A DNA stretch of 64,000 nt. Source: a virus. Below the pieces are notes generated by a model. The model saw nothing but the letters and a program-made list of their open reading frames with translations. It was not told the origin of the DNA and ran no database searches. The position numbers and the translations under genes are program-made. This document shows, piece by piece, positions 1,980 to 61,217 of this stretch. Positions within the stretch are counted from its first letter, which is position 1. Every line of letters starts with the position of its first letter. The DNA is taken from IMG/VR virus record IMGVR_UViG_3300038416_000738, one strand, 5' to 3'.

Positions 1980-2849
1980 ATGGGCGACGTGATTGGTTTC
2001 CCGGTGCCCCGTCATGACGGGAAGAAGAACGACGGGAAGAAGAACGACGCGAAGAAGAACGGCGCGTGGCTCCCGTATAGCGAGACGTCCTCGGGGCAGC
2101 TCACGCTCGACGCCGCGCGCAAGACCGTGGAGTCTGCGAAATGGGGCAAGGTCATCATGCTTGGCGGTGGATCGTCCGAGGATGAAGTCGACGACGTCGC
2201 GACGGTGATCCGGTTTCCGAGTGAGCGTGTCCGCGTGAGCGAAGGCTCGTGTGAGGGCGAGGGCGGCGAAGTCATCACGCTCCGGCCGCCGAACGCGTAT
2301 CACATGGCCTACAACCTCTACGTCCGCGCGAGTCAGCTCGACGAGAATCCCGCGACGTACGACGAGGCGGAAGCGATGTACCGGCGCGCGATCCTGCTCG
2401 ACCCGGGGCTCGCCATCGCGCACACGAATCTCGGCAACATCCTTTTTCGTCGCGGTGAGGATCGCGAGGCCGAGACGCTCTATCGCGCGGCCGTTGCGAT
2501 CGACGAACGCCAGCCGGAAGCGCATTACAACCTCGGTTACGTGATGCTCGAACGCGGCGACGCGCTCGCCGCGTCGGAGCACTTCGGCAAGGCGATCGCT
2601 CGGGACGCCCGCTTCGCGGACGCGCACTTCAACCTTGCGATGGCGTTCGAGCAGATGGGTCGGGGCGCGGAGGCGCGGACAAACTGGAAAAAGTACCTGG
2701 ATCTCGAGCCGAACGGCACGTGGGCGGACATCGCCCGCGCGCACTTGGCGCCGGTGGCGGGGTCGACGGCGGGGCCGGGGTCCGCGAGGCCGAAGCGGAG
2801 GCGCGGGCGCTCGAAGCGCGCGGAATCGGGCCTTACAGGGCCTACGTAG
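1980..2849 (+). CDS. TPR-repeat protein
   Basis: C-terminal half has consecutive TPR-like repeats (AYHMAYNLY.., AHTNLGNIL.., AHYNLGYVM.., AHFNLAMAF..); N-term KKND repeats. Confidence 0.7.
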   Translation: MGDVIGFPVPRHDGKKNDGKKNDAKKNGAWLPYSETSSGQLTLDAARKTVESAKWGKVIMLGGGSSEDEVDDVATVIRFPSERVRVSEGSCEGEGGEVITLRPPNAYHMAYNLYVRASQLDENPATYDEAEAMYRRAILLDPGLAIAHTNLGNILFRRGEDREAETLYRAAVAIDERQPEAHYNLGYVMLERGDALAASEHFGKAIARDARFADAHFNLAMAFEQMGRGAEARTNWKKYLDLEPNGTWADIARAHLAPVAGSTAGPGSARPKRRRGRSKRAESGLTGPT

Positions 2850-2866
2850 ACAGAATGTCTATATAG
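2847..2866. promoter_or_regulatory. palindromic operator TAGACA-GAA-TGTCTA followed by TATATAG
   Basis: perfect 15-bp palindrome read directly; identical element (inverse spacer) at 3828-3847; lies 55 nt upstream of ku ATG. Confidence 0.5.
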
Positions 2867-2919
2867 TTGCATGGGTCGGGAGTCGGCGTTATAAGGGTCG
2901 GAAAGGTGAGGTGAGCCAC

Positions 2920-3705
2920 ATGTCTTCGTCAGCGCGCGCAATCGGTTCAGGAACGATCTCGTTCGGGCTCGTGTCGATCCCGTTCAAGGTCTACACGACG
3001 GCGTCGTCCCACGACGCGTCGTTCAACATGCTCCACGGCAAATGCGGGAGCCGCATGAAGCAGCAGTACCTCTGCCCGGTCGAGAACGTGGTTGTCGACC
3101 GCACGGAGATGGTGAAGGGCTTCGAGTACGCCAAGGATCGGTACGTCCAGTTCACGGCCGAAGAGCTGAAGAAGCTCGAACCCGCGAAGACCGATTCGCT
3201 CGAGATCGTCGAGTTCGTGCCGGAGGAGAGCGTCGATCTCGCGTACCTCGAAAAGAGCTACTACATCGGGCCGGACAAGGGCGCCGGAAAATCGTACCAG
3301 CTCCTCGCGCAGGCGATGAAGGTCGCGAAGAAGATCGCGGTCGGCCGCTACTGGACGCGCGGGCGCGTGCAGCTCGTCCTCATTCGCCCGTACCGCGGGG
3401 GCCTCCTCATGTCGTACGCGTACTACGCGAGCGAGGTGCGCGCGTTCGAGGGCATCGCGCCGAGCGAGAAGACGGAGTTCAAGGAAATCGAGCTGGATCT
3501 CGCGGCGCAGCTCATCAAGCGGCTCGAAACCCCGGCATTCAAGGCGGACAAGTACAAGGACGAGTACCAGGACCGCATCCGGGACGCGGTGGACCAGAAG
3601 ATCGCGGGCAAAGAGATCAGCCTGCCCGACGCGGCGCCTCCGGCGATCATCGTCGACCTCTTCGAGGCGCTCAAGCGCAGCATCGCGGCGGGGATGGGGA
3701 AGTGA
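2920..3705 (+). CDS. ku: Ku DNA end-binding protein (NHEJ)
   Basis: N-terminal 'ISFGLVSIPFKVYTA' Ku core motif, ~260 aa, C-terminal extension typical of bacterial/phage Ku; GGTGAGG RBS. Confidence 0.85.
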   Translation: MSSSARAIGSGTISFGLVSIPFKVYTTASSHDASFNMLHGKCGSRMKQQYLCPVENVVVDRTEMVKGFEYAKDRYVQFTAEELKKLEPAKTDSLEIVEFVPEESVDLAYLEKSYYIGPDKGAGKSYQLLAQAMKVAKKIAVGRYWTRGRVQLVLIRPYRGGLLMSYAYYASEVRAFEGIAPSEKTEFKEIELDLAAQLIKRLETPAFKADKYKDEYQDRIRDAVDQKIAGKEISLPDAAPPAIIVDLFEALKRSIAAGMGK

Positions 3706-5297: not shown

Positions 5298-7316
5298 GTG
5301 ACAAAACGGTATGATTGCGAAGAGAGGCATGAAGTGAACAAGGTGAGCAGGGCGGCGACGAAAGACAAGGCGATGGCGGTGGCGGCGGGGATCTCCGCGT
5401 TCGCGGGGATGCTCTCGCTCGCGGGCCTCTTCGGCCCCTTGGGCGACGCGATCGGGCACGTGCTCTCGGCGTCGCTCGGGGTCGTCGCTTGGGCCGGCGT
5501 CTTGATGCTCGTGCTCGGAGCCGCGTCTCTCTGGCGCGGCAAGGGTTACAAGGCTTTCCGCGGCTTCACGGATGCGGGACTCGTGCTCGTCTTCGCAACG
5601 CTCGTCCGCGTCTGGGGCGGCGATGGCGGGTTCTTGGGTGCGGGCCTCGGCGATCTCGCGGAGTCTGGGCTCGGGACCGTGGGGGCGTCTCTCATGGCGC
5701 TCTTCCTTGTTTTCCTGGTCTTCGCGTCCCGCGTCGACCTCCGCAGTATCGCGGCGCGCCGTGGTCGTAGTGGCGCGGCGCCGCTTCGTCCGGTGCGTGC
5801 GGACATGCCGCACACGCAGCCGATGTCTCCCGCGCCGGGGGCTTGGGCGGCGGAGCCGGAGTCGCTCGCGCCGGTGTCGGTCGCGGACGCCTGCTCGCAG
5901 GAAGATGCGGATGCGGGGACGTCATCGCCGGTGCCTTCGTCGTCGGTGCCTTCGTCGTCGGTGGCGTCGGAGCGGGAATCGTGGGAGCCGGAGTCGTCTT
6001 TCTCTGCGACGCTTCCTTGCGTCTCCGCTCCCGACGGGATCGGGTTCAAGAGCCGCGTTGTCCGCGAGTTCGAGAAGCCGGCGACGTCGCTTCTCTTGCG
6101 CACTGAAGCGTGCGCGGGCGCGGCCGGCGATGCGCAGCTCGCCGAAGAGTCTCGCCACCTCGTTTTGACGCTCTCGTCGTTCGACGTCGAGGCGAGCGTG
6201 CTCGCGGTGGTCCCGGGTCCGGTCGTCACGACGTTCGAGTGCGGGATCGAGGCAGGCACGAAGCTCTCGAAGGTGATGGGGCTCGAGGGGGACTTGTCGC
6301 TCGCGTTCGGCCGCAAGGTCCGCGTCGTGCCGTCGCGCCTCGGGCGCGTCGGGTTTGAGGTGCAGAACGAGGAGCGTGCTGCGGTAGGCCTTCGCGAGCT
6401 TCTCGAGGACGCGCGCTGGGAAGAGGCGAAGAAGTCGGCCTCGCTCCCCGTCGTGATCGGGCGCGACGTTCGCGGCGAGGGTGTCTACGCGGACCTCGCG
6501 ACGATGCCGCACCTCATCGTGGGCGGCGCGACGGGGTCGGGTAAGAGCGTGGGCACGAACGTTCTCTTGTCGTCGCTCCTCTTCGCGCGCTCGCCGGAAG
6601 AAGTCCGCCTCGTGCTCATCGACCCGAAGGTCGTCGAGCTTCAGCCCTACGCGGGCGTGCCGCACCTGCTCTGCCCGGTCGTGACGGAAGCGGATCGAGC
6701 GATCCGCGCGCTCTCGTGGTGCTGCGAAGAGATGGATCGTCGCTACCAGCAGCTCGCTCGCGGGGGGGTCAAGAACCTCGCGTCGTTCAACGGCAAGGTC
6801 TCGCGCACCGAGCGCATGCCGTTCATCGTGGTCGTGGTCGACGAGCTTGCCGACCTGATGATGCAGGAGAAGAAGGCCGTCGAGCCGCTCCTCGTGCGGC
6901 TCGGGCAGAAGGCGCGCGCCGCGGGCATCCACGTCGTCGTCGCCACGCAGCGCCCGTCCGTCGACGTCGTGACGGGGCTCATCAAGTCGAACTTCCCTTC
7001 GCGGGTGGCTTTTCGCACGGCGCAGGCGATTGACAGCAAAGTCGTGCTCGACGAGCAGGGCGCGGAGCACCTCCTCGGCAGGGGCGACGCGCTCGTGAAG
7101 ACCGGCGACTCGGATGCGCTCGTTCGGGTCCAGGTTCCGATGGTCACGGAGGACGAAGTCGGCGCGGTTGTCGGGCACCTTCGCTCGCAGGGCTTGCCGA
7201 ACTACGACGCGAGCATCCTCGCGGAATCCGAGCCCGTGGTGCTCGGAGACGACGGCAAGAGCGGTAAGCGGGGCAGCAAGCGCGCCGCTCGTGCGCCGGG
7301 GAAGGTGTGGTCGTGA
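5298..7316 (+). CDS. FtsK/SpoIIIE-family DNA translocase
   Basis: N-terminal multi-TM region, S/P-rich linker, C-terminal motor with Walker A GGATGSGKS, 'VVVVDELADLM' Walker B, 'ATQRPSVDV'. Confidence 0.9.
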   Translation: MTKRYDCEERHEVNKVSRAATKDKAMAVAAGISAFAGMLSLAGLFGPLGDAIGHVLSASLGVVAWAGVLMLVLGAASLWRGKGYKAFRGFTDAGLVLVFATLVRVWGGDGGFLGAGLGDLAESGLGTVGASLMALFLVFLVFASRVDLRSIAARRGRSGAAPLRPVRADMPHTQPMSPAPGAWAAEPESLAPVSVADACSQEDADAGTSSPVPSSSVPSSSVASERESWEPESSFSATLPCVSAPDGIGFKSRVVREFEKPATSLLLRTEACAGAAGDAQLAEESRHLVLTLSSFDVEASVLAVVPGPVVTTFECGIEAGTKLSKVMGLEGDLSLAFGRKVRVVPSRLGRVGFEVQNEERAAVGLRELLEDARWEEAKKSASLPVVIGRDVRGEGVYADLATMPHLIVGGATGSGKSVGTNVLLSSLLFARSPEEVRLVLIDPKVVELQPYAGVPHLLCPVVTEADRAIRALSWCCEEMDRRYQQLARGGVKNLASFNGKVSRTERMPFIVVVVDELADLMMQEKKAVEPLLVRLGQKARAAGIHVVVATQRPSVDVVTGLIKSNFPSRVAFRTAQAIDSKVVLDEQGAEHLLGRGDALVKTGDSDALVRVQVPMVTEDEVGAVVGHLRSQGLPNYDASILAESEPVVLGDDGKSGKRGSKRAARAPGKVWS

Positions 7317-7543
7317 GGAAAGTTCAAGTGGGCGGCGAGACGTGGGAGTTCACGACGGGCAAGGGCAATGCCGTCATCAAGAACCCGCGCACGGGCAAGA
7401 AGACGATCGTGAATTATTTGAAGCTCACGGGTCGCGATTGGAACACCATCGAGCGCGGGCAGTGGAAGAGGACGAGCGATGGCATGGTCACGCCGGGCCA
7501 CGTGAAGGCTTACATCGCGCGTTACCTCTCGGAGAAGTCATGA
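7307..7543 (+). CDS. hypothetical small protein
   Basis: GTG start overlapping ftsK-like stop; K/T-rich composition. Confidence 0.45.
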   Translation: MVVRKVQVGGETWEFTTGKGNAVIKNPRTGKKTIVNYLKLTGRDWNTIERGQWKRTSDGMVTPGHVKAYIARYLSEKS

Positions 7544-7680
7544 TGCCGCCGCTGTACTTCTTGATGCTCCTCGCGGTGACGGGGCTTCCGCCCGCCGTGC
7601 TCGTCTTCTGCCTCGTCGCGAACGAGGTGCGGTGGAATCGATGGCGCCGGGAGAACCTTGAAGGGGGAATGGAATCATGA
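7540..7680 (+). CDS. hypothetical small membrane protein
   Basis: ATG overlapping previous TGA; one hydrophobic helix; 46 aa. Confidence 0.3.
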   Translation: MMPPLYFLMLLAVTGLPPAVLVFCLVANEVRWNRWRRENLEGGMES

Positions 7681-14253: not shown

Positions 14254-14574
14254 ATGAACGCGGATTCGGGTGCGCTTTCGGAGATTGACATGCTCATGAA
14301 GGCGAGGCAGTCGGATCCCAGCCACGCTTTCAAAAGCGAGCTGCGTTCTCTCTTCGACGATTTCAAGGCGAGGGTAGGCCGCGATCCGGACGAGCGCGAG
14401 AGGCAGGCCATCGTGTTCTGGCTCGCCGGCGAGTGGATCTCCATCGCAGCTTTCGCGTGCGGGCGGGTGGATGCGAGCTTCTCGAGCGTCGCGGAGCGCG
14501 TCCGCTCGGAGTTCGAGCGCGGGCTCCGGAAGATGGTAGACGACGGGACAGCGCGAGCCGTGGAGCAGGAATGA
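14254..14574 (+). CDS. hypothetical protein
   Basis: ATG 14254 (alt GTG 14242) in tail of ORF 13588..14574; W/F-containing composition. Confidence 0.45.
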   Translation: MNADSGALSEIDMLMKARQSDPSHAFKSELRSLFDDFKARVGRDPDERERQAIVFWLAGEWISIAAFACGRVDASFSSVAERVRSEFERGLRKMVDDGTARAVEQE

Positions 14575-15392
14575 AGCCTTTTCTTAAATGGGCCGGCGGT
14601 AAGACGAAGCTCGTGCCGACCATCCTCGCGCGCGTTCCCGTGTTCGAGGGCTCGTATCACGAGCCTTTCGTTGGCGGCGGCGCCGTGTTCATGGCGCTCC
14701 ATGCGGCCGGCAAGCTCTCGCGTGCGCACCAGGTGGGCTATGCAGTCCTGAACGACGTGAACGCGGAGCTGATGAACGCGTACGCGGTGGTGCAGGACGG
14801 GGCCACGGACTTCGTGAAGAAGCTCCTCGAGATCAAGCACTCGAAGGAGACGTACTACAAGGTGAGGGCCAAGGAAGAAACGGAGCCGCTCGCGCGCGCT
14901 GTGCGTTTTTGTTACCTCAATAAAACCTGTTTTAACGGCCTCTATCGCGTGAATCGCGCCGGGCACTTCAACGTCCCCATCGGAGACTACAAGAACCCGG
15001 TCATCGTGGAGCCCGACGTCGTCGCCGCATGGCACGCGGCACTCGCGGGCGTGACGCTCCGCTCCGAGGACTTCGAGCCGCGCATCCTCGCCGCGAAGAG
15101 GGGCGACTTCATCTACGTGGACCCGCCGTACCTGCCGCGCTCGAAGACCGCCGACTTCACCTCGTACACGGCGGATCGCTTCGCGCTGAAAGAGCACGAG
15201 CGGCTCGCAGCGGCGCTCGTGACGGCAGACCGTCGCGGCGCGAAGTTCATCGCGAGCCAGGGCGACAGCGAAACGATCCGTGCACTCTACAAAGAGTTCG
15301 GGATCGAGAGCGTCTCGGTGACGCACGCGATCGCCGCGAAAAAAGCGTCGCGTGTGAAGGTCGGCGAGGTTCTGATTTCGAACGTGCGCTGA
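14571..15392 (+). CDS. dam: DNA adenine methyltransferase (Dam/D12-class, GATC-type)
   Basis: N-terminal 'KPFLKWAGGK' SAM motif, 'NKTCFNGLYR', catalytic 'DPPY'; ATG in ATGA overlap. Confidence 0.85.
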   Translation: MKPFLKWAGGKTKLVPTILARVPVFEGSYHEPFVGGGAVFMALHAAGKLSRAHQVGYAVLNDVNAELMNAYAVVQDGATDFVKKLLEIKHSKETYYKVRAKEETEPLARAVRFCYLNKTCFNGLYRVNRAGHFNVPIGDYKNPVIVEPDVVAAWHAALAGVTLRSEDFEPRILAAKRGDFIYVDPPYLPRSKTADFTSYTADRFALKEHERLAAALVTADRRGAKFIASQGDSETIRALYKEFGIESVSVTHAIAAKKASRVKVGEVLISNVR

Positions 15393-18356: not shown

Positions 18357-20228
18357 ATGCAGGTGCAGCTTGAGAGGTACGGCGCGCCCGGCGCGGCGGG
18401 CGCAGTGAAGTTCTCGCTCAAGAAGGGCAGCGAGGGGGACTTCCGATGCCTGCTCTCACCGTACGGGTGGCAGGCGAGCGTGCCGTCTTCGAAAGCGCCG
18501 GACGTGAAGGTCCTGTCGCAGCGCGATTTCCTCGTGCCCGTGCACGCCGCGATGCTCGCATGCGCGGCGCTCTCGAAGGCGAGGGTCGAGATCTTTGCCC
18601 CGAAGGAAGTCCAAGCGGCGGTCCGCTCCGCGGCGTGGAAGTGTAACGCGCCGAAGCTTTACGCTTACCAGAAGCAGGGCGCGGAGTTCCTCCGATCGCG
18701 GCGCCGGGCCATCCTTGCCGACGACATGGGCACCGGCAAGACGGCGCAGTCGCTTTCGGCGCTCGACGCCTCGAAGGCCGCGCTCATCGTCGTGCCTCCC
18801 GTCGTGCTCGGATCTTGGTTCGAGGAGGCGAGGCGCTGGCGACCCGATCTCACGGCGCGGATCTGGCAGCCCCCCTACGGGATCTGGGCGGAGCCGGGCG
18901 AGATCTGCATCATCGCCTATTCGAAGCTCCCCTATGAGAGCATCGAGTCGAGACTCAGGTGCCCTACGTGCGGCCGCCTCTCGGCATCCTATGTGGACGA
19001 GGCGAGCGTGCTCGTCGAGGAGTTCGTCGAGGAAGACCGCCGCGGGATCGAGAAGAAGATCCAGAGGTGGTCGTACCGATGTGACAAGGATCATGGGGGA
19101 CTCTGCGGCCAAGGTTTCACGGCGCGCGACGACGAGGCCGAGGTCGAGCACATCTGGATCGGGCCGCGGCCGAAGCACGCCGTGCAGCTCATCGTCGACG
19201 AGGCCCACTGGTGCAAGAACCGAAATGCGAAGCGCACGATCGGCGTGCGGACGGTCGCGGCGCAGTGCTGGACGACCTGGATGCTCACGGGAACGCCGCT
19301 CCTCAACGAGCCGATGGAGCTTTGGACGCTCTGCCAATCCTTCCCTGGTCAAGGAAAAGGCAGCTCGGGCGCGAGCGACGCGTTCGGGTCCTTCCCGAAG
19401 TTCGTCGAGATGTTCCACGGCAAGAGGAAGTTCTGGGGCGGCTACGACTGGGCCGTGGACGACGAGGTCGAGCCCGAAGCCCGAGCACGCTTCGCGACGC
19501 TCGCGCTCCGGCGCACGAGGCAGGAGGTGCTCCCAGAGCTGCCAGAGAAGACGCGACGTTTCCTCGAGATCGCGGTCGACGTGCGCGGCATGCCGCACTG
19601 GGGCGAGCCGGAGAACTCCGCGCTCGGCAGACTGAGCGACGATGAGGTGCTCGGGGCCTGCGCACCCGAGGGATCCCTGTCCACGGTGCGCCGCGAGCTT
19701 GCCTCGCGGAAGCTCGACTCGCTCGAGCAGCTCGTCGAGGAGTACGAGGCGACGGGCGAGCCCGTCGTGGTGTTTAGTTACCACAAGGATCCGATCAAGC
19801 AGCTCGGCGCGCGCAAGGGTTGGGCGTGGATCACGGGCGAGACGAACGATCGCGACCGGACGGCGCACGTCGCGGCTTTTCAGGCGGGAAAACTCAAGGG
19901 CCTCGCCGGGACCATCGGCGCGATGGGTGTCGGGGTCACGCTCACGCGGTCCTCGAACATGCTATTCCTCGACCGCGACTTCGTCCCGGCGAACAACCTC
20001 CAGGCGGAGGACCGCGAGATGCGGATCGGACAGAAGCGCGCCGTGCTCATCACGATCCTCGTGACGGATCACCCCGTCGACAGGCGGGTGCGCGCCGTGC
20101 TCGAGAAGAAGGAGAGGTTGCTCGAGGCGCTCGATCTCTCCGAGGGATCGAATGTGCGCGCGGAGGTTGCGTCCCACAAGGGCAGAATAAAGATGGCTGG
20201 CAAGGTCCCTGATTCGGAGGTCTCATGA
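18357..20228 (+). CDS. SNF2-family helicase with Cys-cluster insertion
   Basis: 'LADDMGTGKT' motif I, 'LIVDEAHWCKN' motif II, helicase C-terminal motifs; CPTCG...RCDKDHGGLCGQ insertion between. Confidence 0.85.
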   Translation: MQVQLERYGAPGAAGAVKFSLKKGSEGDFRCLLSPYGWQASVPSSKAPDVKVLSQRDFLVPVHAAMLACAALSKARVEIFAPKEVQAAVRSAAWKCNAPKLYAYQKQGAEFLRSRRRAILADDMGTGKTAQSLSALDASKAALIVVPPVVLGSWFEEARRWRPDLTARIWQPPYGIWAEPGEICIIAYSKLPYESIESRLRCPTCGRLSASYVDEASVLVEEFVEEDRRGIEKKIQRWSYRCDKDHGGLCGQGFTARDDEAEVEHIWIGPRPKHAVQLIVDEAHWCKNRNAKRTIGVRTVAAQCWTTWMLTGTPLLNEPMELWTLCQSFPGQGKGSSGASDAFGSFPKFVEMFHGKRKFWGGYDWAVDDEVEPEARARFATLALRRTRQEVLPELPEKTRRFLEIAVDVRGMPHWGEPENSALGRLSDDEVLGACAPEGSLSTVRRELASRKLDSLEQLVEEYEATGEPVVVFSYHKDPIKQLGARKGWAWITGETNDRDRTAHVAAFQAGKLKGLAGTIGAMGVGVTLTRSSNMLFLDRDFVPANNLQAEDREMRIGQKRAVLITILVTDHPVDRRVRAVLEKKERLLEALDLSEGSNVRAEVASHKGRIKMAGKVPDSEVS

Positions 20229-37630: not shown

Positions 37631-38031
37631 TGCTCGAGTTGAAGGACGGGCGCTACATCGCTGCCGTTTGGTTCGTTCCGCTCCGGAACGCCGTCGACAG
37701 GAGCGGGACCTTTTTCCAGCGCGCGGACTGGCTCGCCACGCTCTACCGGGACGAGGGTGACGAGACGTTCAAGCTCCATTATCGCTTCCGGTATTACGTC
37801 GATGACAAGATCCAAGGCTCGAAGGATGGGCGCAGCGGGTACCTCGTGGATCTCGTGGGCAAGACCGAATGCGAGGCGACGGCGATCGTCTCCTCCGCGG
37901 CGAGCGTGATCGCCAAGACGTGCAAGGGTGCGGACATTCACAAGATCGTCCTCCGCTCGAGCGACGCGCGCTTCGTCGCCTCGCGCCTCGAGAAAGAAGA
38001 CTTCGTGCATTTCGAGCGCAATCGTGGCTGA
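37630..38031 (+). CDS. hypothetical protein
   Basis: TGATG overlap. Confidence 0.5.
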   Translation: MLELKDGRYIAAVWFVPLRNAVDRSGTFFQRADWLATLYRDEGDETFKLHYRFRYYVDDKIQGSKDGRSGYLVDLVGKTECEATAIVSSAASVIAKTCKGADIHKIVLRSSDARFVASRLEKEDFVHFERNRG

Positions 38032-40264
38032 CGCCCTCGTCTCCAAGAAAGCGGAACGTGGTAAGCCTGCCGAGGAAGTCTCGAACGAGGATCCGGCGGC
38101 GCCGAAGATCGGGCGCTGGTATTGGGTGTCGGACGACGACGGTGAGGGCGGCACGAAGAAGTGGTTTGGCTGCGTCACGCGCGTGGGATCGAACTACGTC
38201 GAGATCACGGCGCCGAGCCGCGGCTACGACCGCGTCCACGAAGACGAGTTTTGGAAGCGCTGCGAGCACGAGCCCGATCCCGAGCGCGTCATTCGCGACG
38301 AGATCGCCTCGCGCCAGGCCGAGGTCCGCGGGCTCATGGACAAGGTGAAGGAGATCACCGCGCGCCTCGCCATCACCACGGGACCGGTGCTCCCCTCGGC
38401 GGGCTCCGAGACCCAGGCGCTCGCGCTCCGCGGAGCGGGCGACAAGGACATGGGCAAGTACAAGAAGGCGCTCGTCCTCGCGAAGGAGAAGACGCTCCCG
38501 GAGCTTTTCAAGGAGATCAGGGACGTGAACGAGGGGCTCGGGCGATGGCTCGCCGCGGAATTGATCCCGATGGAGGCCCAGGCCGAGGCGATGGAGCCAG
38601 CGATTGAGGCCATCCAAGATCGCATCTTCTCGGTCGAACTTTACGCGGGTCTCGTCGAAGAGATCATCCAGATCCGGCAGGGTGAGCCCGCCCCCGTCGG
38701 CGAGAAGATCCGACTGATGCAGCGTCGCTGTTATTGTGATGAGGAGTGTTTGGCGCGCTACGAAGTCGGCGGCATGGAATTCAAGGACATGCACGCCTTC
38801 GATCGCTGGCTCGCGAAGAAGGAAAATATGGAACGGATCCTCCCGTTCCCACGCTGCGTCGCTGCGTTCCAAGTGCGGCGCGCCAAGAAGGAGCGCGAGT
38901 GGGGGAACTTGGCCGAGTTTCTCAACATCATTAACGAGGAGAAGACGGACAAGTTCACGTACCTCTATCTCCGCAACGGCGCGCAGCTCTTCTGCCTCGG
39001 GACGGGCATCGAGTTCGGCGAGCAACTTTTCCCGGACATGGCTTCCTGGAAAGTGTCGAAAGGTGGCCCGCTCTACGCGAAAATGTTCTCGGATCGCGTC
39101 GACAAGATCATCACGAAGGACGAGTACGACGCGATGGTCGAGGAAGAGGAGAAAGAAATCGCGGAAGAAGAAGCGGAGGCGAAGAAGCACCCGGAGAAGG
39201 ATCGCTGGAGGTCCAGGAGTTACTTCCGCGAATCACGCGACTACAAGCCCTTCGATCGCTCGAACGTTCACTACGACGAGATGGTCAAGCACGTGCAGGA
39301 CGAGATGAAGAGGCACAACCGCCTCGTGCTCGTGCTCCAGGGACTGCTCGATCGGTCGCCCGTCTTCCACCCACACCCGCCTTGGGCCGTGTGGACGGAC
39401 GCAGGTTTCGGGCAGGCCCTCGAACTCGTCTACGACGACACGCGCGCGCTCGCGCCTGGCGAGCGCCCCGACTTCGAGGCGTACCGCGCGCGCCTGAACG
39501 CGTCCCTGAAGGCCGGTTCGATCACCATCGGTCAAGAGATCCAGTGGGAGAAGGAGGAAGCGATCAAGGAGAACGCCCGGATGGATCGCGACTACCGCCA
39601 CAAGCGGAGCGACTACCGCCCGACGCGCTACCGTCCCTACGGAAACCCCGGTCCCGGCAAGCTCGCGCGCGTCTTCGAGTGGAAACCCAAGTCGAAAAAG
39701 TGCGTCTACGAGTGGAAGCGGGAGCGCCAGACGCAGACGTGGAAGGACGACGGTAGCTCCATCCGCTGCACGTTCATGGTCGATGCTTCGAAAGTCTTCC
39801 ACGTCGATGCCTACAAGCCCGGAGACTTCCACCAATTCTTCGATGACCCGCGGACGCGCGCCGACTACCTCGAGTGGGCGCCCTTCCTCCTCGCGGCCGA
39901 GGAGTACCACGCGGGAAACCGCAAGGCGCCGAAGCCGCTCGAACCGATCCCGCGGCGCAAGACCGAGGACGGCGCGTGGAAGTACAGGAAGAAAAAGCAG
40001 CGGAAAGCTTGGCTCGGGAAAGCGATCCGTTTGAAACAGGCCGTGACGACGCAAGGCGGGGCGGCCCATGAGAAGGGGACGCTCTGGCGGGTGATCGATG
40101 GTCGCGGCGACCACTTCTCCATCGCGGGCATCGACGACGAGGGACGCCGCCTTCTTGGTGAGGACAAGCGCTTCGTCATGAACGTCCACATGGGCAAGTT
40201 CGAGCTGGACAACGCGGTGCCGCCCGAGCCGCCCGAGCCGGAGGAGGAAGAGGAAGAAAAATGA
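38024..40264 (+). CDS. large hypothetical protein (747 aa)
   Basis: GTG start overlapping previous stop; long uninterrupted ORF with balanced W/Y/F/K/E-rich composition; no recognisable motif. Confidence 0.7.
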   Translation: MADALVSKKAERGKPAEEVSNEDPAAPKIGRWYWVSDDDGEGGTKKWFGCVTRVGSNYVEITAPSRGYDRVHEDEFWKRCEHEPDPERVIRDEIASRQAEVRGLMDKVKEITARLAITTGPVLPSAGSETQALALRGAGDKDMGKYKKALVLAKEKTLPELFKEIRDVNEGLGRWLAAELIPMEAQAEAMEPAIEAIQDRIFSVELYAGLVEEIIQIRQGEPAPVGEKIRLMQRRCYCDEECLARYEVGGMEFKDMHAFDRWLAKKENMERILPFPRCVAAFQVRRAKKEREWGNLAEFLNIINEEKTDKFTYLYLRNGAQLFCLGTGIEFGEQLFPDMASWKVSKGGPLYAKMFSDRVDKIITKDEYDAMVEEEEKEIAEEEAEAKKHPEKDRWRSRSYFRESRDYKPFDRSNVHYDEMVKHVQDEMKRHNRLVLVLQGLLDRSPVFHPHPPWAVWTDAGFGQALELVYDDTRALAPGERPDFEAYRARLNASLKAGSITIGQEIQWEKEEAIKENARMDRDYRHKRSDYRPTRYRPYGNPGPGKLARVFEWKPKSKKCVYEWKRERQTQTWKDDGSSIRCTFMVDASKVFHVDAYKPGDFHQFFDDPRTRADYLEWAPFLLAAEEYHAGNRKAPKPLEPIPRRKTEDGAWKYRKKKQRKAWLGKAIRLKQAVTTQGGAAHEKGTLWRVIDGRGDHFSIAGIDDEGRRLLGEDKRFVMNVHMGKFELDNAVPPEPPEPEEEEEEK

Positions 40265-49299: not shown

Positions 49300-49677
49300 G
49301 TGACCATGAATCGCTTGAAGCCGGCCCTACCGCCTGGCACGCACTACGCGGACAGCAAGAACATCGTCGTGAGGTCGATCGTCGGTACGGACTCGAACAC
49401 CACGTGGCGCGACAACATTCGGAACCTCTTGAAGACGGCGCGCGGCGGAGCCGACAGCGAGTGGCGGCGATTCGGTTACGGTCTCCTTTATGACGTGGTG
49501 GGCTGGACACCGGGCCAATACGCGCTCGGGATGTACGCGGCGCTCCACGACTGCGGGGTGATCCTCTCCAAGAAAAAGTTTGGCGAGAAGGACCTCTCCC
49601 GGATCCGGGAGAAACTCGAGCAAGCAGGTTTCAATCTCGTCCCCGAATGGAAAGCGGCGAGTGGTGGAGCGAAATGA
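49300..49677 (+). CDS. hypothetical protein (partner of nucleotidyltransferase)
   Basis: ORF track; stop overlaps NTase start. Confidence 0.45.
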   Translation: MTMNRLKPALPPGTHYADSKNIVVRSIVGTDSNTTWRDNIRNLLKTARGGADSEWRRFGYGLLYDVVGWTPGQYALGMYAALHDCGVILSKKKFGEKDLSRIREKLEQAGFNLVPEWKAASGGAK

Positions 49678-50624
49678 ATTTCGACGTCGCGTCCCGCACG
49701 ATCCTCCTCGTCCGCCACGGCTCGCACGCCTACGGCATGAATACACCTACGTCGGACTTGGATTCGAAGGGCGTGTGCATCGAGCCGAAGGCATTTCATT
49801 TCGGGTTCCTTCACACGTTCGAGCAAGAGACGCGCGAGGCGAAGAAAGGCGCCGCGGAGGACCGCGTCGTTTACTCGCTCAAGAAGTTCGCGGGGCTCGC
49901 GGCCGAGTGCAACCCGAACATCATTGAGGTGCTCCACGTGGCGGACGAGCACGTGCTCGCTATCGACGCGTTCGGCGAGGAGCTTCGCGCGATGCGGCAC
50001 GCTTTCGTCTCCGCGAAGGCGCGCTGGACATTTGCGGGTTACGCGCACTCGCAATTGAAGCGCATCAAGACGCACCGCAAGTGGCTCGTCGACCCGCCGA
50101 AGGCGCCGCCGACCCGCAAGGAGTTCGGCCTCTCCGAGGTGAGCAAGATCTCGAAGGCCGAGTTGGGCGCGTTCGACGCCGCCGTGGATCAGTCCCTCGA
50201 GATCGAACTCTCGCGCGAGCTGATGACGGTCTTCACGCGCGAGAAGCAGTACCAAGCGGCCAAGAGGCACTACGACCAGTTCGAGAACTGGAAGAAGACG
50301 CGCAACGCCGCGCGCGCCGAACTCGAGGCGAAGTTCGGGCTCGACACGAAGCACGCCGCGCACCTCGTGAGGCTCCTCCGCATGTGCAAGGAGATCATGA
50401 CGACTGGCGAGGTCGTCGTGAAGAGGCCCGACGCCGCGGAGTTTCTCTCCATCCGGGCCGGGGCATGGACCTACGACCAGATCGTCGAGTACGCCGAGAG
50501 GACCGAGGCCGAGTGCGCCGCACTTTACGATGCAGGCGCGACCGTCCGCCACGAACCCGACCGCATCGCCATCGACGCCGCGATCGTGGGCATGACTGAA
50601 CGTTACCTCGCCGCATACGGTTGA
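49674..50624 (+). CDS. Pol-beta-superfamily nucleotidyltransferase
   Basis: 'HGSHAYGMNTPTSDLDSKG' = GS-X10-D-x-D active-site signature of MNT/CD-NTase-type nucleotidyltransferases; 317 aa. Confidence 0.6.
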   Translation: MNFDVASRTILLVRHGSHAYGMNTPTSDLDSKGVCIEPKAFHFGFLHTFEQETREAKKGAAEDRVVYSLKKFAGLAAECNPNIIEVLHVADEHVLAIDAFGEELRAMRHAFVSAKARWTFAGYAHSQLKRIKTHRKWLVDPPKAPPTRKEFGLSEVSKISKAELGAFDAAVDQSLEIELSRELMTVFTREKQYQAAKRHYDQFENWKKTRNAARAELEAKFGLDTKHAAHLVRLLRMCKEIMTTGEVVVKRPDAAEFLSIRAGAWTYDQIVEYAERTEAECAALYDAGATVRHEPDRIAIDAAIVGMTERYLAAYG

Positions 50625-52550: not shown

Positions 52551-54329
52551 ATGGCGACTCGAATCAAACCCCTGCCCAAGATCATCGCGGCCGTGGCCAT
52601 CGCTGCGGGCCTTTTCTTCGGGATCCGGTTCCTCGTGAACGCGCAGCCCGGCCACGAAGCTTCCGTGCCGAAGACGGCCGCGCTCCCGACGCTCGACGAG
52701 CATGTCTCGAAGGCCGCTGTGCCCGAAACGCCGCTGCCGGGCGCCGCGCTCGCGGGCAAAGGCACGGACGTGCGCATGATGGTGTGGGCGTGGAACGCGC
52801 AGATGGGACTCCTGTACGCGAACGGCGGCGCCGACACGACGCAGGGCTCGCTCATGGCCGGCCACAACGTGAACCTCCACTTCACCCGCGAGAACGACAC
52901 GAGCAAGATGGCGGCGCAGCTCATGGCCCTCGCGACCGATGTCGCGAAAGGTGGCGAGTCGAAGAACGGCGTCCACTTCATCACGCTCATGGGTGACGGC
53001 ACGCCGAGCTGGTTCGCCGGACTCAACGCGGACCTGAAGAAGATCTGCGCGGACTGCACCGCCGAGACCGTCGGCGTCCTCGGCTACTCGCGCGGCGAAG
53101 ACAAGTTCATGGGACCCGCGGAGTGGAAGTCGAATCCGAAGAAAGCCCAGGGCGCGCTCATCGCGGGCGTCATCCGCGACGGGGACTGGAACGCCGCGAT
53201 GAAATGGGCTGGTGACAACGGGATCCCGAACAACCCGGACGAGAAGACGTACGACCCGGACGCGCTCAACTGGGTGAGTGTGGACGACTACCTCGAGGCC
53301 CCGAAGAAATACATCCTCGGCGTCTGCGAAGACCGTCCCGTCGTGCACGCCGGCCACAAGACCGGGCAGACGAAGAACGTGTGCGTGAACGGCGTCGTCA
53401 CGTGGACCCCCGGCGACGTGAACGTCGCGCAGCAGAAGGGCGGCCTCGCGAGCATCGTCTCGACGAAGGAGTACCGGAGCCAGATGCCGTGCGCGCTCAT
53501 CGGAATCCGGAAGTGGGATCGCGCGCACAAGGACGTCGTCGAGGGGATCCTCCAGGCGGCCTTTGACGGCGGCGACCAGGTGCGGAGCTACCCGCGCGCG
53601 CTCGACCGCGGCGGCGAGATCAGCGCGGCGGTCTACAAGGAGGAGAGCGGCGCGTACTGGGTCAAGTACTTCAAGGGCGTCACCGAGAACGACAAGACGG
53701 GCCTGCCGGTGCCGCTCGGCGGATCGTCGGTCTCCGATCTCGCCGACGACATGCAGGTCTTCGGTCTCACGGCAGGCTCCACAAACCTTTTCGCCGCGAC
53801 GTACACGACGTTCGGCGACATCGCCGTCCAGCAGTACCCGAAGCTCGTGCCGAACTACCCGCCTGTCGCGGACGTGCTCGACACGTCCTATGTCGAGGAT
53901 CTCGCGAAGAAGGCCCCAGTGATGACGACGTCCGCGGACGTGGCCGTCTACAAGAAGGATGCGGCGATCACGGAAGTCGTCTCGAAGAAGAGCTGGTCGA
54001 TCACGTTTCAGACGGGGAGCGCGGCCTTCACGCCGGAAGCGCAGAAGACGCTCGACGCACTTGAGAAGGACCTCGTCATCACGGACCTCATGGTGGAGAT
54101 CGACGGTCACACGGACAACACCGGCGACGCCACGGGGAACAAGACGCTTTCCGAGGCGCGTGCCCAGGCGGTGAAGGCGTGGCTCATGAAGCAGTCGACG
54201 ACGAACTTTCCCGCCGACCGCTTCAGCGTCAAATCGTTCGGGCAGGACAAGCCCGTCGCGTCGAACGACACGGAGACGGGTCGCGCGAAGAACCGCCGCG
54301 TCGACGTCATCATGGGGTCGGGGAACTGA
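52551..54329 (+). CDS. membrane-anchored protein with C-terminal OmpA-like domain
   Basis: N-terminal TM; C-terminal '[18 protein letters not shown]...[10 protein letters not shown]' OmpA/MotB signature; central ~400 aa domain unassigned (possibly SBP-like). Confidence 0.75.
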
Positions 54330-58864: not shown

Positions 58865-59118
58865 AATGTCCGCGATGCGATATCGAATTGGTGACGAAGT
58901 ATGGCCGTGAGGTGCACTGGGATGATCGGGATTGCGTCGAACATCTCCAGCGACACCTCCGCGCCCTTCGCGCTGAAGTCGCACGCAAGGACGCGGCGCT
59001 CGAGAAGCTCCTGGACTTGATGGACAAATGGAGCCCCGATACGGCGATTCACATTCTGCACGCAGCCCTCGCCCCGGCTGCGGAGTCGGAGTTCAAAGGG
59101 GTGCCGGTGACGCCGTGA
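58861..59118 (+). CDS. hypothetical protein with N-terminal CxxC
   Basis: ATGA overlap. Confidence 0.4.
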   Translation: MKCPRCDIELVTKYGREVHWDDRDCVEHLQRHLRALRAEVARKDAALEKLLDLMDKWSPDTAIHILHAALAPAAESEFKGVPVTP

Positions 59119-59924
59119 ATCACGAGTACAAGGACGTCCTCATCAGCATCCAAAACGTGGGCCTGTCGTACGGCGGCAAGCCGATCCTCGAGGATCTGTC
59201 CGCGGAGGTGCGCGACATCGTTCGGCCTGATGTCGTGACGGGGCAGGTCATCGGCGTGCTCGGGCCGAGCGGGATCGGTAAGACGCAGCTCTCGCGGATT
59301 ATGACGGGGCTTCAAGAGCCGACGTCGGGCGAGATCCTCGTGGGCGGCAAGAAGGTCGCGGCCGGCGTCGTCGGTTACGTCGCGCAGAATTACCCGCTCC
59401 TTCGCCACAAGACCGTCCTCGGCAACCTGAAGGTGGCGGCGCGCCGCGCCGGCGCGTCGGGCGAGGGGGCGGCGCAGAAATCGAACGACATGCTCTCGAA
59501 GTTCGGGCTCGCGGACAAGGCGCTCGATTTCCCCGCGGAGCTTTCCGGCGGCCAGCGGCAACGCGTCGCCATCGCGCAGCAGCTCCTCTGCTCCGAACAC
59601 TTCCTCATCCTCGACGAGCCGACGACGGGTCTCGATCCCATCATGAAGGACAAGGTGTGCGAACTCATCAAGCAGGTTGCATCGCTCTCAGAAGAGAACA
59701 CGATCTTCGTCGTGACGCACGACATCGCCGCGATCCTCACCATCGCCGATCACCTCTGGCTCCTCGGGCGAACGCGCGACGGCGAGGGACGCTCGCTCGG
59801 CGCGAAGATCCTCCACACGTACGATCTCATCGAGCGCGGCCTGGCGTGGCAGGAGCGCCCGCAAGACCTGCCCGCGTTTGCGGAGATGCAAAGGGAAGTG
59901 CGCGAGCGCTTCGCGACGCTATGA
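59115..59924 (+). CDS. ABC transporter ATP-binding protein (TauB/SsuB-like)
   Basis: Walker A 'GPSGIGKT', signature 'LSGGQRQR', Walker B 'LILDEPT', H-loop 'VTHD'. Confidence 0.85.
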   Translation: MNHEYKDVLISIQNVGLSYGGKPILEDLSAEVRDIVRPDVVTGQVIGVLGPSGIGKTQLSRIMTGLQEPTSGEILVGGKKVAAGVVGYVAQNYPLLRHKTVLGNLKVAARRAGASGEGAAQKSNDMLSKFGLADKALDFPAELSGGQRQRVAIAQQLLCSEHFLILDEPTTGLDPIMKDKVCELIKQVASLSEENTIFVVTHDIAAILTIADHLWLLGRTRDGEGRSLGAKILHTYDLIERGLAWQERPQDLPAFAEMQREVRERFATL

Positions 59925-60217: not shown

Positions 60218-60549
60218 TGCTCGACATCGAGGTCATCCGGAAACGCATCTCGAAACCCACACCCGCGATCATCTCGTCGGACGAGGACGACACGCCGGAG
60301 CAGGCGCGTGACCTCGAGATCCGTAACCAGAACATCCTGGCGTGGGCCGAAGATCGCCGTGACCTTGCTCGCGCACTCGCGGAGATCGAGCGCCTCGAAG
60401 ACGAGAACGCGCTCCTCAAGAAATCGGCGGAGCCGGAGATGCTCGCGCTCCTCGAGCGCTTCTTCGCATGCCTCGATCAAAAGCAAGAGATCGAAGGAGA
60501 GATGCGCGCCCTCGTGACCGTGGCGAAGGTTACCAAGGTCTTGCCTTGA
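60217..60549 (+). CDS. hypothetical coiled-coil protein
   Basis: TAATG overlap. Confidence 0.4.
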   Translation: MLDIEVIRKRISKPTPAIISSDEDDTPEQARDLEIRNQNILAWAEDRRDLARALAEIERLEDENALLKKSAEPEMLALLERFFACLDQKQEIEGEMRALVTVAKVTKVLP

Positions 60550-61217
60550 TCACGTTCGCGATCCTCCTCGGCGTTTTCGTGGGCCTCATGATGTTCGCGA
60601 TTCCGGTGCTCGCCGGCAGGCGCGCGCCACCGAGGTCGATCGCGCCCATCGAGACGCCCTACATCCGGGCCGCGGTTCACGAGGCGGGCCACGTCGTCGC
60701 CGCGTGGAGCTGCACGTTCGTGCGCAACATGCCCGAGGTCCTCGTCCGCATGGAGGGGTCGGGGCACGTGCAGATCGCGTACTTCAACATCGGCAAGCCC
60801 GACGAGCGATGGTGTTACCTCGCGATCCTCCTCGCGGGCGCCGCGGCCGAGGCGACGATCTTCAAGAAAGGGCGGAGCGCTCAAGCGGCGTCCGACCTCC
60901 GCGCAGCCCTCGCGGAAGCCAAAGCGATCGGCGACGCATCGCCGCCTTGGAAGCCGATCGAGACGGGCGCGTCGATCGACTTCGTTCGGCTCTTTCAAGA
61001 GCCGCTTGATCCGAAGGTGCTCGGGGTCCTCGTGCAGGGTTACCGCATGAGCAAGCGCCTCGTCCTGCGCAAGCGAGCGAGGCCGTTCCACCAGACGGTC
61101 TCGATGCTCATCGCCTCGGGGCGGGCGTCCGAGGCCCAGCTCGAGAAGATCCTCGGCTCGCGTTTCGTGGCGCGCTCGGTCGCGCCGCTCGGCGCCCGGT
61201 TCGTGGGGCTCGGATGA
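60546..61217 (+). CDS. membrane-anchored HExxH metallopeptidase (FtsH/M41-like peptidase domain)
   Basis: N-terminal TM; 'AVHEAGHVVAAW' then '~75 aa' then 'LAILLAGAAAEATIF' parallels FtsH 'YHEAGHA...LLGGRAAEE'; start uncertain (TTG 60546 / ATG 60588). Confidence 0.55.
   Translation: MITFAILLGVFVGLMMFAIPVLAGRRAPPRSIAPIETPYIRAAVHEAGHVVAAWSCTFVRNMPEVLVRMEGSGHVQIAYFNIGKPDERWCYLAILLAGAAAEATIFKKGRSAQAASDLRAALAEAKAIGDASPPWKPIETGASIDFVRLFQEPLDPKVLGVLVQGYRMSKRLVLRKRARPFHQTVSMLIASGRASEAQLEKILGSRFVARSVAPLGARFVGLG

Follow-up and report, generated by a model that had tools for sequence, protein, structure and literature searches.

Can an M41 protease work without its motor? In textbooks, the M41 proteases stand for a protease chamber that is obligately coupled to an AAA+ unfoldase, and in FtsH the AAA ring sits between the membrane and the protease ring. 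The question is raised by a gene in a 64,000-nucleotide stretch of the IMG/VR virus record IMGVR_UViG_3300038416_000738, which is called the window here. The gene (60546..61217, + strand; TTG start and TGA stop, taken from the open reading frame (ORF) list and the sequence) encodes a putative AAA-less M41-type metalloprotease of 223 amino acids (aa), in which a single transmembrane helix at the N-terminus (residues 2-23) is joined by ~14 linker residues to a complete M41 domain. An earlier note, made from the nucleotide sequence before any database search, had described the product as a membrane-anchored stand-alone M41-like HExxH peptidase, and this description is upheld by profile homology, by the invariance of the catalytic residues, and by the predicted fold. 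The reading favoured here, held with somewhat more belief than doubt, is that the protein acts as an autonomous, ATP-independent, membrane-tethered M41 endopeptidase that is used in infection.

The gene itself is well defined. The same 223-aa product was independently called by the Joint Genome Institute (JGI) gene caller on peat-metagenome contigs, the longest of which has 261,519 bp. The guanine-cytosine (GC) content at its three codon positions (0.67/0.51/0.83) is similar to that of the adjoining genes, and comparison with an 87%-identical homologue, L071, gives a ratio of nonsynonymous to synonymous substitution rates (dN/dS) of 0.13. The gene is therefore taken to be real and under purifying selection, and the ORF originally proposed at 60546-61217 is confirmed by the identical JGI call and the low dN/dS. 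In the sequence TTGA, its TTG start overlaps with the TGA that ends the upstream gene. An alternative, longer ATG start is present at 60468 in the window and is unconserved among the homologues. In L071 a stop codon lies in the extended frame right after the equivalent ATG, and in a 44%-identical homologue, L070, the ATG immediately precedes the hydrophobic segment. For these reasons, the start at 60468 is judged unlikely.

Taken alone, the window protein matches the Pfam family Peptidase_M41 (PF01434) at E=0.041 and 14.2 bits, below the gathering cut-off of 29.9, and single-sequence searches gave no PDB match and no PHROG match. A word-indexed homologue search found four close relatives; searches of this type yield few members even with profiles, since FtsH crowds the candidate list. 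An alignment of the close relatives was used as the query for an exhaustive HMMER search of 1.84 billion cluster representatives (50%-identity clusters), which returned 444 matches at E<=1e-3 and 265 at E<=1e-10. The best 150 of the 444 matches are all 139-278 aa long, and nearly all of these 150 have HE[A/S]GH ~45-50 residues from the N-terminus. On these sequence matches, the family is estimated to comprise at least 150 and up to 444 clusters at 50% identity.

A family alignment of 133 sequences, most of them 25-40% identical to the window protein, makes the relationship to FtsH much clearer. Individual members match PF01434 at E<=0.01 in 131 of 133 cases and the FtsH model TIGR01241 in 129, and the family profile matches the FtsH protease domains in PDB with E=4e-22 across the entire domain. 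Profile positions 39-217 align to chain positions 261-457 of Thermotoga maritima FtsH (2ce7), approximately residues 406-602. The protease domain of this enzyme is formed by residues 404-603 (PMC8943139), and essentially the whole of it is therefore covered by the match. The corresponding M41 (FtsH-type) protease domain of the window protein is complete and spans about residues 39-217 (60660..61196, + strand). A loci search with 18 family sequences mostly recovered genuine full-length FtsH genes.

Only five columns of the 133-member alignment are invariant, namely H45, E46, H49, G98, and D117. Near-invariant columns are G48, G73, W89, L96, A100, E102, A121, and R206, with E102 kept in 129 members. 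The HEAGH zinc-binding/catalytic motif (60678..60692, + strand) contains H45, E46, and H49 and aligns with H423/E424/H427 of T. maritima FtsH. The LLAGAAAE helix motif at residues 95-102 (60828..60851, + strand), with G98 and E102, is the counterpart of the LGGRAAE of FtsH. Both motifs that the earlier note had quoted are in place, AVHEAGHVVA at residues 43-52 and LLAGAAAEA at residues 95-103, and the spacing of ~75 residues that it had given for them is wrong, the actual spacing being 52 residues. For the third zinc ligand, the absence of which, together with a different fold, that note had treated as decisive against its proposal, a candidate is present in D117 (60894..60896, + strand), which is invariant in 133 of 133 members. 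D117 aligns to index 355 of the 2ce7 chain, that is, to residue 500 of T. maritima FtsH. This Asp500 is reported to be the third zinc ligand in the T. maritima crystal structure (Bieniossek et al. 2006). The conversion of chain index to residue number uses an offset of +145, which was checked on H423 and H427 (PMC12067869).

The intact H-E-x-x-H and the Asp predict a catalytically competent M41 zinc metalloprotease without an AAA+ unfoldase. Support for catalytic competence comes from the invariance of H45, E46, H49, and D117 despite the low overall identity of 25-40%, and from the dN/dS of 0.13. The family is set apart from FtsH proper by a signature composed of W54, C56, W89, C90, PPW, and R206. 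The PPW motif (residues 133-135; 60942..60950, + strand) is family-specific and is not found in FtsH; P133 is conserved in 91, P134 in 119, and W135 in 113 of the 133 members.

The AlphaFold2 model built from the 133-sequence alignment has a predicted local distance difference test (pLDDT) score of 94.2 and a predicted template modelling (pTM) score of 0.84. A 4-sequence alignment gave a pLDDT of only 40, and a confident model required the 133 sequences. From the N-terminus, the model consists of a helix (2-23), a coil linker, the HExxH helix (38-54), a beta hairpin (59-79), a helix carrying G98 and E102 (85-106), a helix carrying D117 (112-128), and a C-terminal helical bundle. The Foldseek comparison that had been suggested as a check places this model with the FtsH-type fold: the best 48 matches in PDB are all M41 protease domains (FtsH, AFG3L2, YME1, or FtsHi), with ~20% sequence identity to the FtsH protease domains. 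With HExxH, the third-ligand Asp, and the fold all present, the window protein belongs, on sequence and modelled structure, to the M41 protease-domain superfamily.

Weak matches to Peptidase_M50B occur in 20 of the 133 members. The site-2 proteases (M50: RseP, SpoIVFB) are likewise membrane-associated HExxH metalloproteases, and the M50 active site is buried in the membrane among several transmembrane helices. An HExxH in a polytopic membrane core together with an LDG-type Asp on another transmembrane helix, the characteristic feature of M50, is not seen in the window protein, and M50/S2P membership was rejected on the fold scores. Judged by the model, the M50B matches reflect the common HExxH helix and not M50 membership.

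FtsH, AFG3L2, and YME1 (MEROPS M41; 2CE7/3KDS, and 2DI4 from Aquifex aeolicus) share the HExxH helix and the third-ligand Asp with the window protein. The Gly/Glu helix reads LAGxAAE in the family and LGGRAAE in FtsH, and the predicted site at the cytoplasmic face of the inner membrane is the same. In contrast to FtsH, the window protein is without the AAA+ ATPase, the AAA lid, and FtsH_ext, and it has one transmembrane helix where FtsH has two. Moreover, its protease domain is tethered to the membrane by ~14 residues and is not suspended under an AAA ring. A Pfam scan matched no AAA, AAA-lid, or FtsH_ext domain in the 223-aa protein, and HExxH begins at residue 45, leaving no room for an N-terminal AAA+ module; the family as a whole is likewise too short to hold one. 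The two-helix N-terminus of FtsH with its periplasmic domain is also absent, the single helix 2-23 being all that precedes the linker. The early description of an N-terminal transmembrane segment and no ATPase is thus borne out by the helix at 2-23, by the lack of an AAA match, and by the total length of 223 aa. Because no AAA+ ATPase is present, the window protein is not an ATP-dependent protease by itself.

The plant and algal FtsHi proteins and the Ycf2-FtsHi motor subunits (8XKV, 8XQW, 8XKS) have divergent M41 folds and rank high in the structural search. In FtsHi proteins the AAA module is retained and the zinc site is gone (PMC9020784). The window family is the reverse of this, with the AAA module lost and the zinc site kept. 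FtsHi proteins show that an M41 fold can be retained for non-proteolytic roles, and their place among the structural matches, together with the disruption of some phage copies of the gene (a tnpB insertion in L051/L027, and split frames in L022, L025, and L026), would fit a non-catalytic pseudo-protease or scaffold of the FtsHi kind, or a decaying remnant. This is the least probable of the alternatives considered and is hardly credible, as the four metal and catalytic residues are invariant in 133 divergent members, the dN/dS is low, and the copy in the window is intact.

The N-terminal transmembrane anchor (residues 2-23, ITFAILLGVFVGLMMFAIPVLA, then RRAPPR; 60549..60614, + strand) is indicated by the AlphaFold2 helix and by the Kyte-Doolittle mean of 2.64 over 19 residues. 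No basic residues precede these 22 hydrophobic residues, and RRAPPR follows them. Across the family, a clear transmembrane-like segment is present in 85 of 133 members and starts at a median residue of 2, and the median distance from the hydrophobic segment to HExxH is 25-28 residues. The C-terminal flank is richer in K/R than the N-terminal flank in 81 of these 85 members (mean 3.4 vs 0.18). Because of this bias, the positive-inside rule predicts that the protease domain is cytoplasmic and that the N-terminus faces outward.

The opposite topology would make the protein an exported protease, in which a signal peptide or an N-in/C-out anchor brings the M41 domain to the periplasm or envelope to act there, for example on envelope proteins or in lysis. 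Three features agree with export: the V-L-A|G at the end of the segment looks like an AxA signal-peptidase site, C56 and C90, which most members share, might pair in a disulfide, and a start at ATG 60468 would provide a strongly basic N-terminus. Nevertheless, the frame from this start runs into a stop codon in L071, the closest homologue, the start is missing from others, and no basic n-region is present without it. The hydrophobic stretch of 22 residues has the length of a transmembrane helix, Arg-Arg follows directly after it, and the charge bias of the C-terminal flank holds in 81 of 85 members. Export is therefore regarded as highly improbable.

The genomic surroundings of the family were inspected in nine independent contexts, which include the window/L071 group and one bacterial chromosome. 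One-directional arrays of small genes in the style of large phages are found in seven of the nine, and the GC content of the contexts spans 34% to 70%, which points to diverse hosts. Besides the window/L071 group, the contexts are that of the 44%-identical homologue (L070); one with 34% GC and with FtsK and HNH nearby (L072); a 411-kb contig with VapE, SET, and an astacin-like peptidase (L015/L016); an IMG/VR group (L017, L051/L027, L022-L026); a 140-kb IMG/VR contig (L035); a group with NAD synthase, transglycosylase, PP2C phosphatase, kinase, ADP-ribosylglycohydrolase, NAD ligase, Thg1, and LAGLIDADG endonuclease (L065-L068); one with 70% GC and genes on both strands (L069); and the bacterial chromosome of the metagenome-assembled genome (MAG) nzgw370 (L008). 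The sampled members thus come mostly from large, phage-like genomes, and the chromosomal case shows that the family also occurs outside mobile elements. With the window protein and the family consensus as queries, tblastn found no family member in 50,697 deposited phage records, and against 72,556 plasmids it found no family member and true ftsH genes only. Comparison with the PADLOC defence models gave no consistent match, only three unrelated models with one member each of the 133 at E>5e-4, and a role in a defence system thus receives no support from PADLOC-DB.

Several copies of the gene are altered. The M41-like gene of an IMG/VR phage with a 60.8-kb contig is disrupted (L051 6208-8613, + strand; L027 6475-8880, - strand). 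The insertion at ~6760-8013 of L051 (- strand) is an IS605-type TnpB on the opposite strand, with OrfB_IS605, Cas12f1-like TNB, and helix-turn-helix domains. About 190 N-terminal and ~55 C-terminal residues flank the insert of ~560 codons, and the frame is still open over 801 codons. In L022 (8734-10004), L025 (9113-10383), and L026 (5923-7193), the M41-like gene appears to be split over two overlapping frames, each of which matches part of the profile; the gene is a frameshifted pseudogene there, or the split is an error of sequencing.

In the phage group L065-L068 (34-35% GC), the M41-like gene at 7001-7678 adjoins genes for a PP2C phosphatase, a protein-kinase-like protein, an ADP-ribosylglycohydrolase, and a peptidoglycan transglycosylase, and this neighbourhood may be a host-signalling takeover module. 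In one genome of the group, a LAGLIDADG homing endonuclease is inserted near the M41-like gene.

The immediate neighbours of the gene in the window encode an ABC ATPase and proteins of 98 aa, 110 aa (coiled-coil), and 67 aa, and the three small proteins have no Pfam identity. Only the 98-aa and 110-aa neighbours recur, and only in the 87% relative L071, whose short contig stops before the ATPase position. Homologues of the window neighbours were not found beside family members in the eight other contexts. A conserved partner gene or operon was rejected, since no neighbour recurs beyond the 87% relative, and this lack of a conserved neighbour across the contexts is in line with a protein that acts alone.

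The same observations bear on the notion of a split protease, in which an ATPase or unfoldase would come in trans from a separate gene of the phage or host. One candidate would be the orphan ABC-type enzyme encoded three genes upstream (59115-59924, + strand; 269 aa, PF00005 E=2e-26, phrog_293). It has no adjacent permease as a partner, and two small ORFan genes lie between it and the protease gene in a translationally coupled run whose start and stop codons overlap. On the other hand, the ATPase and the two small genes are not beside the protease in other contexts, L071 retaining the small genes and ending before the ATPase position. Apart from the chromosomal ftsH, no AAA+ gene lies beside any sampled family member. 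ABC ATPases are not known as unfoldases. A split protease is therefore very unlikely, its chance being small and only slightly above that of export.

The bacterial chromosome deserves separate attention. In the groundwater MAG "bacterium isolate nzgw370" (JAHFIV010000002.1), ftsH is followed immediately by two tandem AAA-less M41 genes (L008 3453-7347). Ahead of ftsH come, in this order, alr, ddl, and a gene with no assigned identity, and after the AAA-less pair come an M23 peptidase gene and gltX. The ftsH gene is full-length and encodes 595 aa with FtsH_ext, AAA, and M41. The AAA-less copies have 255 and 215 aa, with HEAGH, LAGLAAE, and the Asp intact and with weakly hydrophobic N-termini.

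This arrangement, the only one recovered from a bacterial chromosome, with both AAA-less copies directly after a full-length ftsH, agrees with a different role, in which the protein hijacks or poisons FtsH. It would insert into the host FtsH hexamer via the protease-ring interface, and the mixed rings with fewer AAA modules would be inhibited or retargeted. FtsH controls phage-relevant substrates such as lambda CII, and it governs the lysis-lysogeny decisions of phage lambda. The phage protein and FtsH are both predicted at the cytoplasmic face of the inner membrane, and the FtsH protease domain governs protomer pairing and forms a symmetric ring (PMC9020784; PMC8943139). The compatibility of the interface is nevertheless doubtful at ~20% identity to FtsH and with the family's own signature (W54, C56, W89, C90, PPW, R206), and the hosts seem very diverse, with GC of the contexts from 34% to 70%. 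Moreover, the AAA ring separates the protease ring of FtsH from the membrane, so a linker of ~14 residues may be too short, and a pure poison needs no invariant catalytic site. Such hijacking is considered unlikely, even though it stands well above the other alternatives.

In the favoured reading of an autonomous endopeptidase, the product would be a single-pass inner-membrane protein with its N-terminus outward, a linker of ~14 residues, and a cytoplasmic protease domain, and it would cleave without ATP while tethered to the membrane. The FtsH protease domain, when heterologously expressed alone, still hexamerises (PMC9020784). As the isolated domain is reported both to hexamerise and to dictate protomer pairing (PMC9020784), assembly of the window protein into an oligomeric ring is probable by analogy. 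The face that takes substrate from the AAA ring in FtsH would here point at the inner leaflet. Because no unfoldase is present, the substrates would be limited to unfolded or flexible cytoplasmic segments near the membrane, such as membrane-protein tails and loops and polypeptides that are nascent or lack structure. During infection, the protein may serve an accessory function in host takeover or self-processing, and plausible uses are the removal of host membrane proteins or of membrane-bound defence or exclusion factors, or the processing of phage membrane proteins.

Several points weigh against this reading. Proteolysis by FtsH is coupled to ATP-driven unfolding, and an isolated M41 domain may barely act on folded proteins. 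The sole chromosomal example lies directly downstream of a full-length ftsH, which hints at a functional link and not at full autonomy. Membrane anchoring is not universal, as 48 of the 133 members have no strongly hydrophobic N-terminus. No capsid or terminase gene and no other structural phage gene was found among the 25 window ORFs scanned, and an exact 42-mer of the window contig had no match in IMG/VR; the phage identity of the window rests on its gene organisation and a few phage-like proteins.

A precedent among viral proteins is A0A6J5RJ76 (BFVD) from an uncultured Caudovirales phage, a stand-alone M41 fold of similar length (214 aa) with a Foldseek E=1.4e-4 and 15% identity in the structural alignment. 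Its name, "Peptidase M41 domain-containing protein", is computer-assigned. Several relatives of the window protein also carry precomputed PF01434 tags, and the AAA-less M41 architecture has thus already been encountered by database pipelines. Jumbo phages and giant viruses also encode M41-family proteins, including gp107 of Pseudomonas phage MIJ3, gp342 of PA5oct, and proteins of Yasminevirus and Terrestrivirus. The giant-virus matches in BFVD are far longer (444-892 aa), and MIJ3 gp107 is described as "FtsH-like", a homologue of FtsH, the ATP-dependent zinc metalloprotease (PMC6892783). These full-length FtsH-like viral genes were not detected by the tblastn search of the 50,697 phage records with the window protein or the consensus. 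A Vibrio cholerae protein of unknown function (PDB 5IQJ, 131 aa) is much shorter and was not recovered by the sequence profile. In the full-text literature, no description of or experiment on AAA-less M41 proteases in phages was found, and no functional study of A0A6J5RJ76; the report on MIJ3 gp107 (PMC6892783) is the only one on a phage FtsH that was found there.

The window as a whole resembles the genome of a large phage. It has ~63% GC with a positive GC skew in every 2-kb bin, and its likely genes are nearly all on the + strand and small, many with 4-base start/stop overlaps. The following features were identified, all on the + strand: Ku (2635-3705), FtsK/SpoIIIE with the FtsK alpha domain (5298-7316), a DNA methyltransferase (14433-15392), an SNF2-type helicase (18357-20228), a conserved large-phage protein of 778 aa (37928-40264), an RlaP-like nucleotidyltransferase (49647-50624), and a 592-aa protein with a C-terminal OmpA domain (52551-54329). 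The 778-aa protein has no Pfam or PHROG match. Its counterparts, which are 43-44% identical over ~80% of its length, are hypothetical proteins from Mesorhizobium phage Cp1R7A-A1 and from Erythrobacter phage vB_EliS-L02, and the best match of the nucleotidyltransferase is in a 485-kb uncultured phage. Because these two proteins match phages and the small, overlapping genes lie on one strand, the host element is most likely a jumbo phage. The mobile-element setting assumed in the earlier note therefore stands, on the large-phage-like gene layout and the two phage-matching proteins.

Just past the end of the window, the same contig (L001 7834-14084) carries genes for a histone-deacetylase-like protein with a fused DUF2442, a Ro60/TROVE-vWA protein, an RNA ligase, and a NUDIX hydrolase, a cluster that looks like RNA repair or RNA quality control. 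Rfam at gathering thresholds found neither a Y-RNA nor any other family in the window or in L001, and no tRNA genes were found there either.

The existence of a large family under selection, with the catalytic residues kept and the motor gone, suggests that the M41 domain is useful alone, and the family challenges the assumption that M41 proteolysis always needs a motor. Genes of this kind are currently annotated as "hypothetical" or, wrongly, as "ATP-dependent" by domain transfer. A protein of ~200 residues would offer a minimal system for M41 catalysis and ring assembly without an ATPase. The concentration of the family in large phage genomes points to an unstudied manipulation of the host membrane proteome, possibly including host FtsH. 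In its widest and most speculative form, to which only a low probability is given, large phages of many host lineages would carry a dedicated ATP-independent M41 ring that sits directly on the inner membrane and would rewire host membrane proteostasis with it, either by cutting specific membrane proteins of the host or its defences or by joining the host FtsH. Were this true, the M41 proteases would gain a first functional class able to operate with no AAA+ motor, and the protease domain of FtsH would be a module autonomous in both evolution and function.

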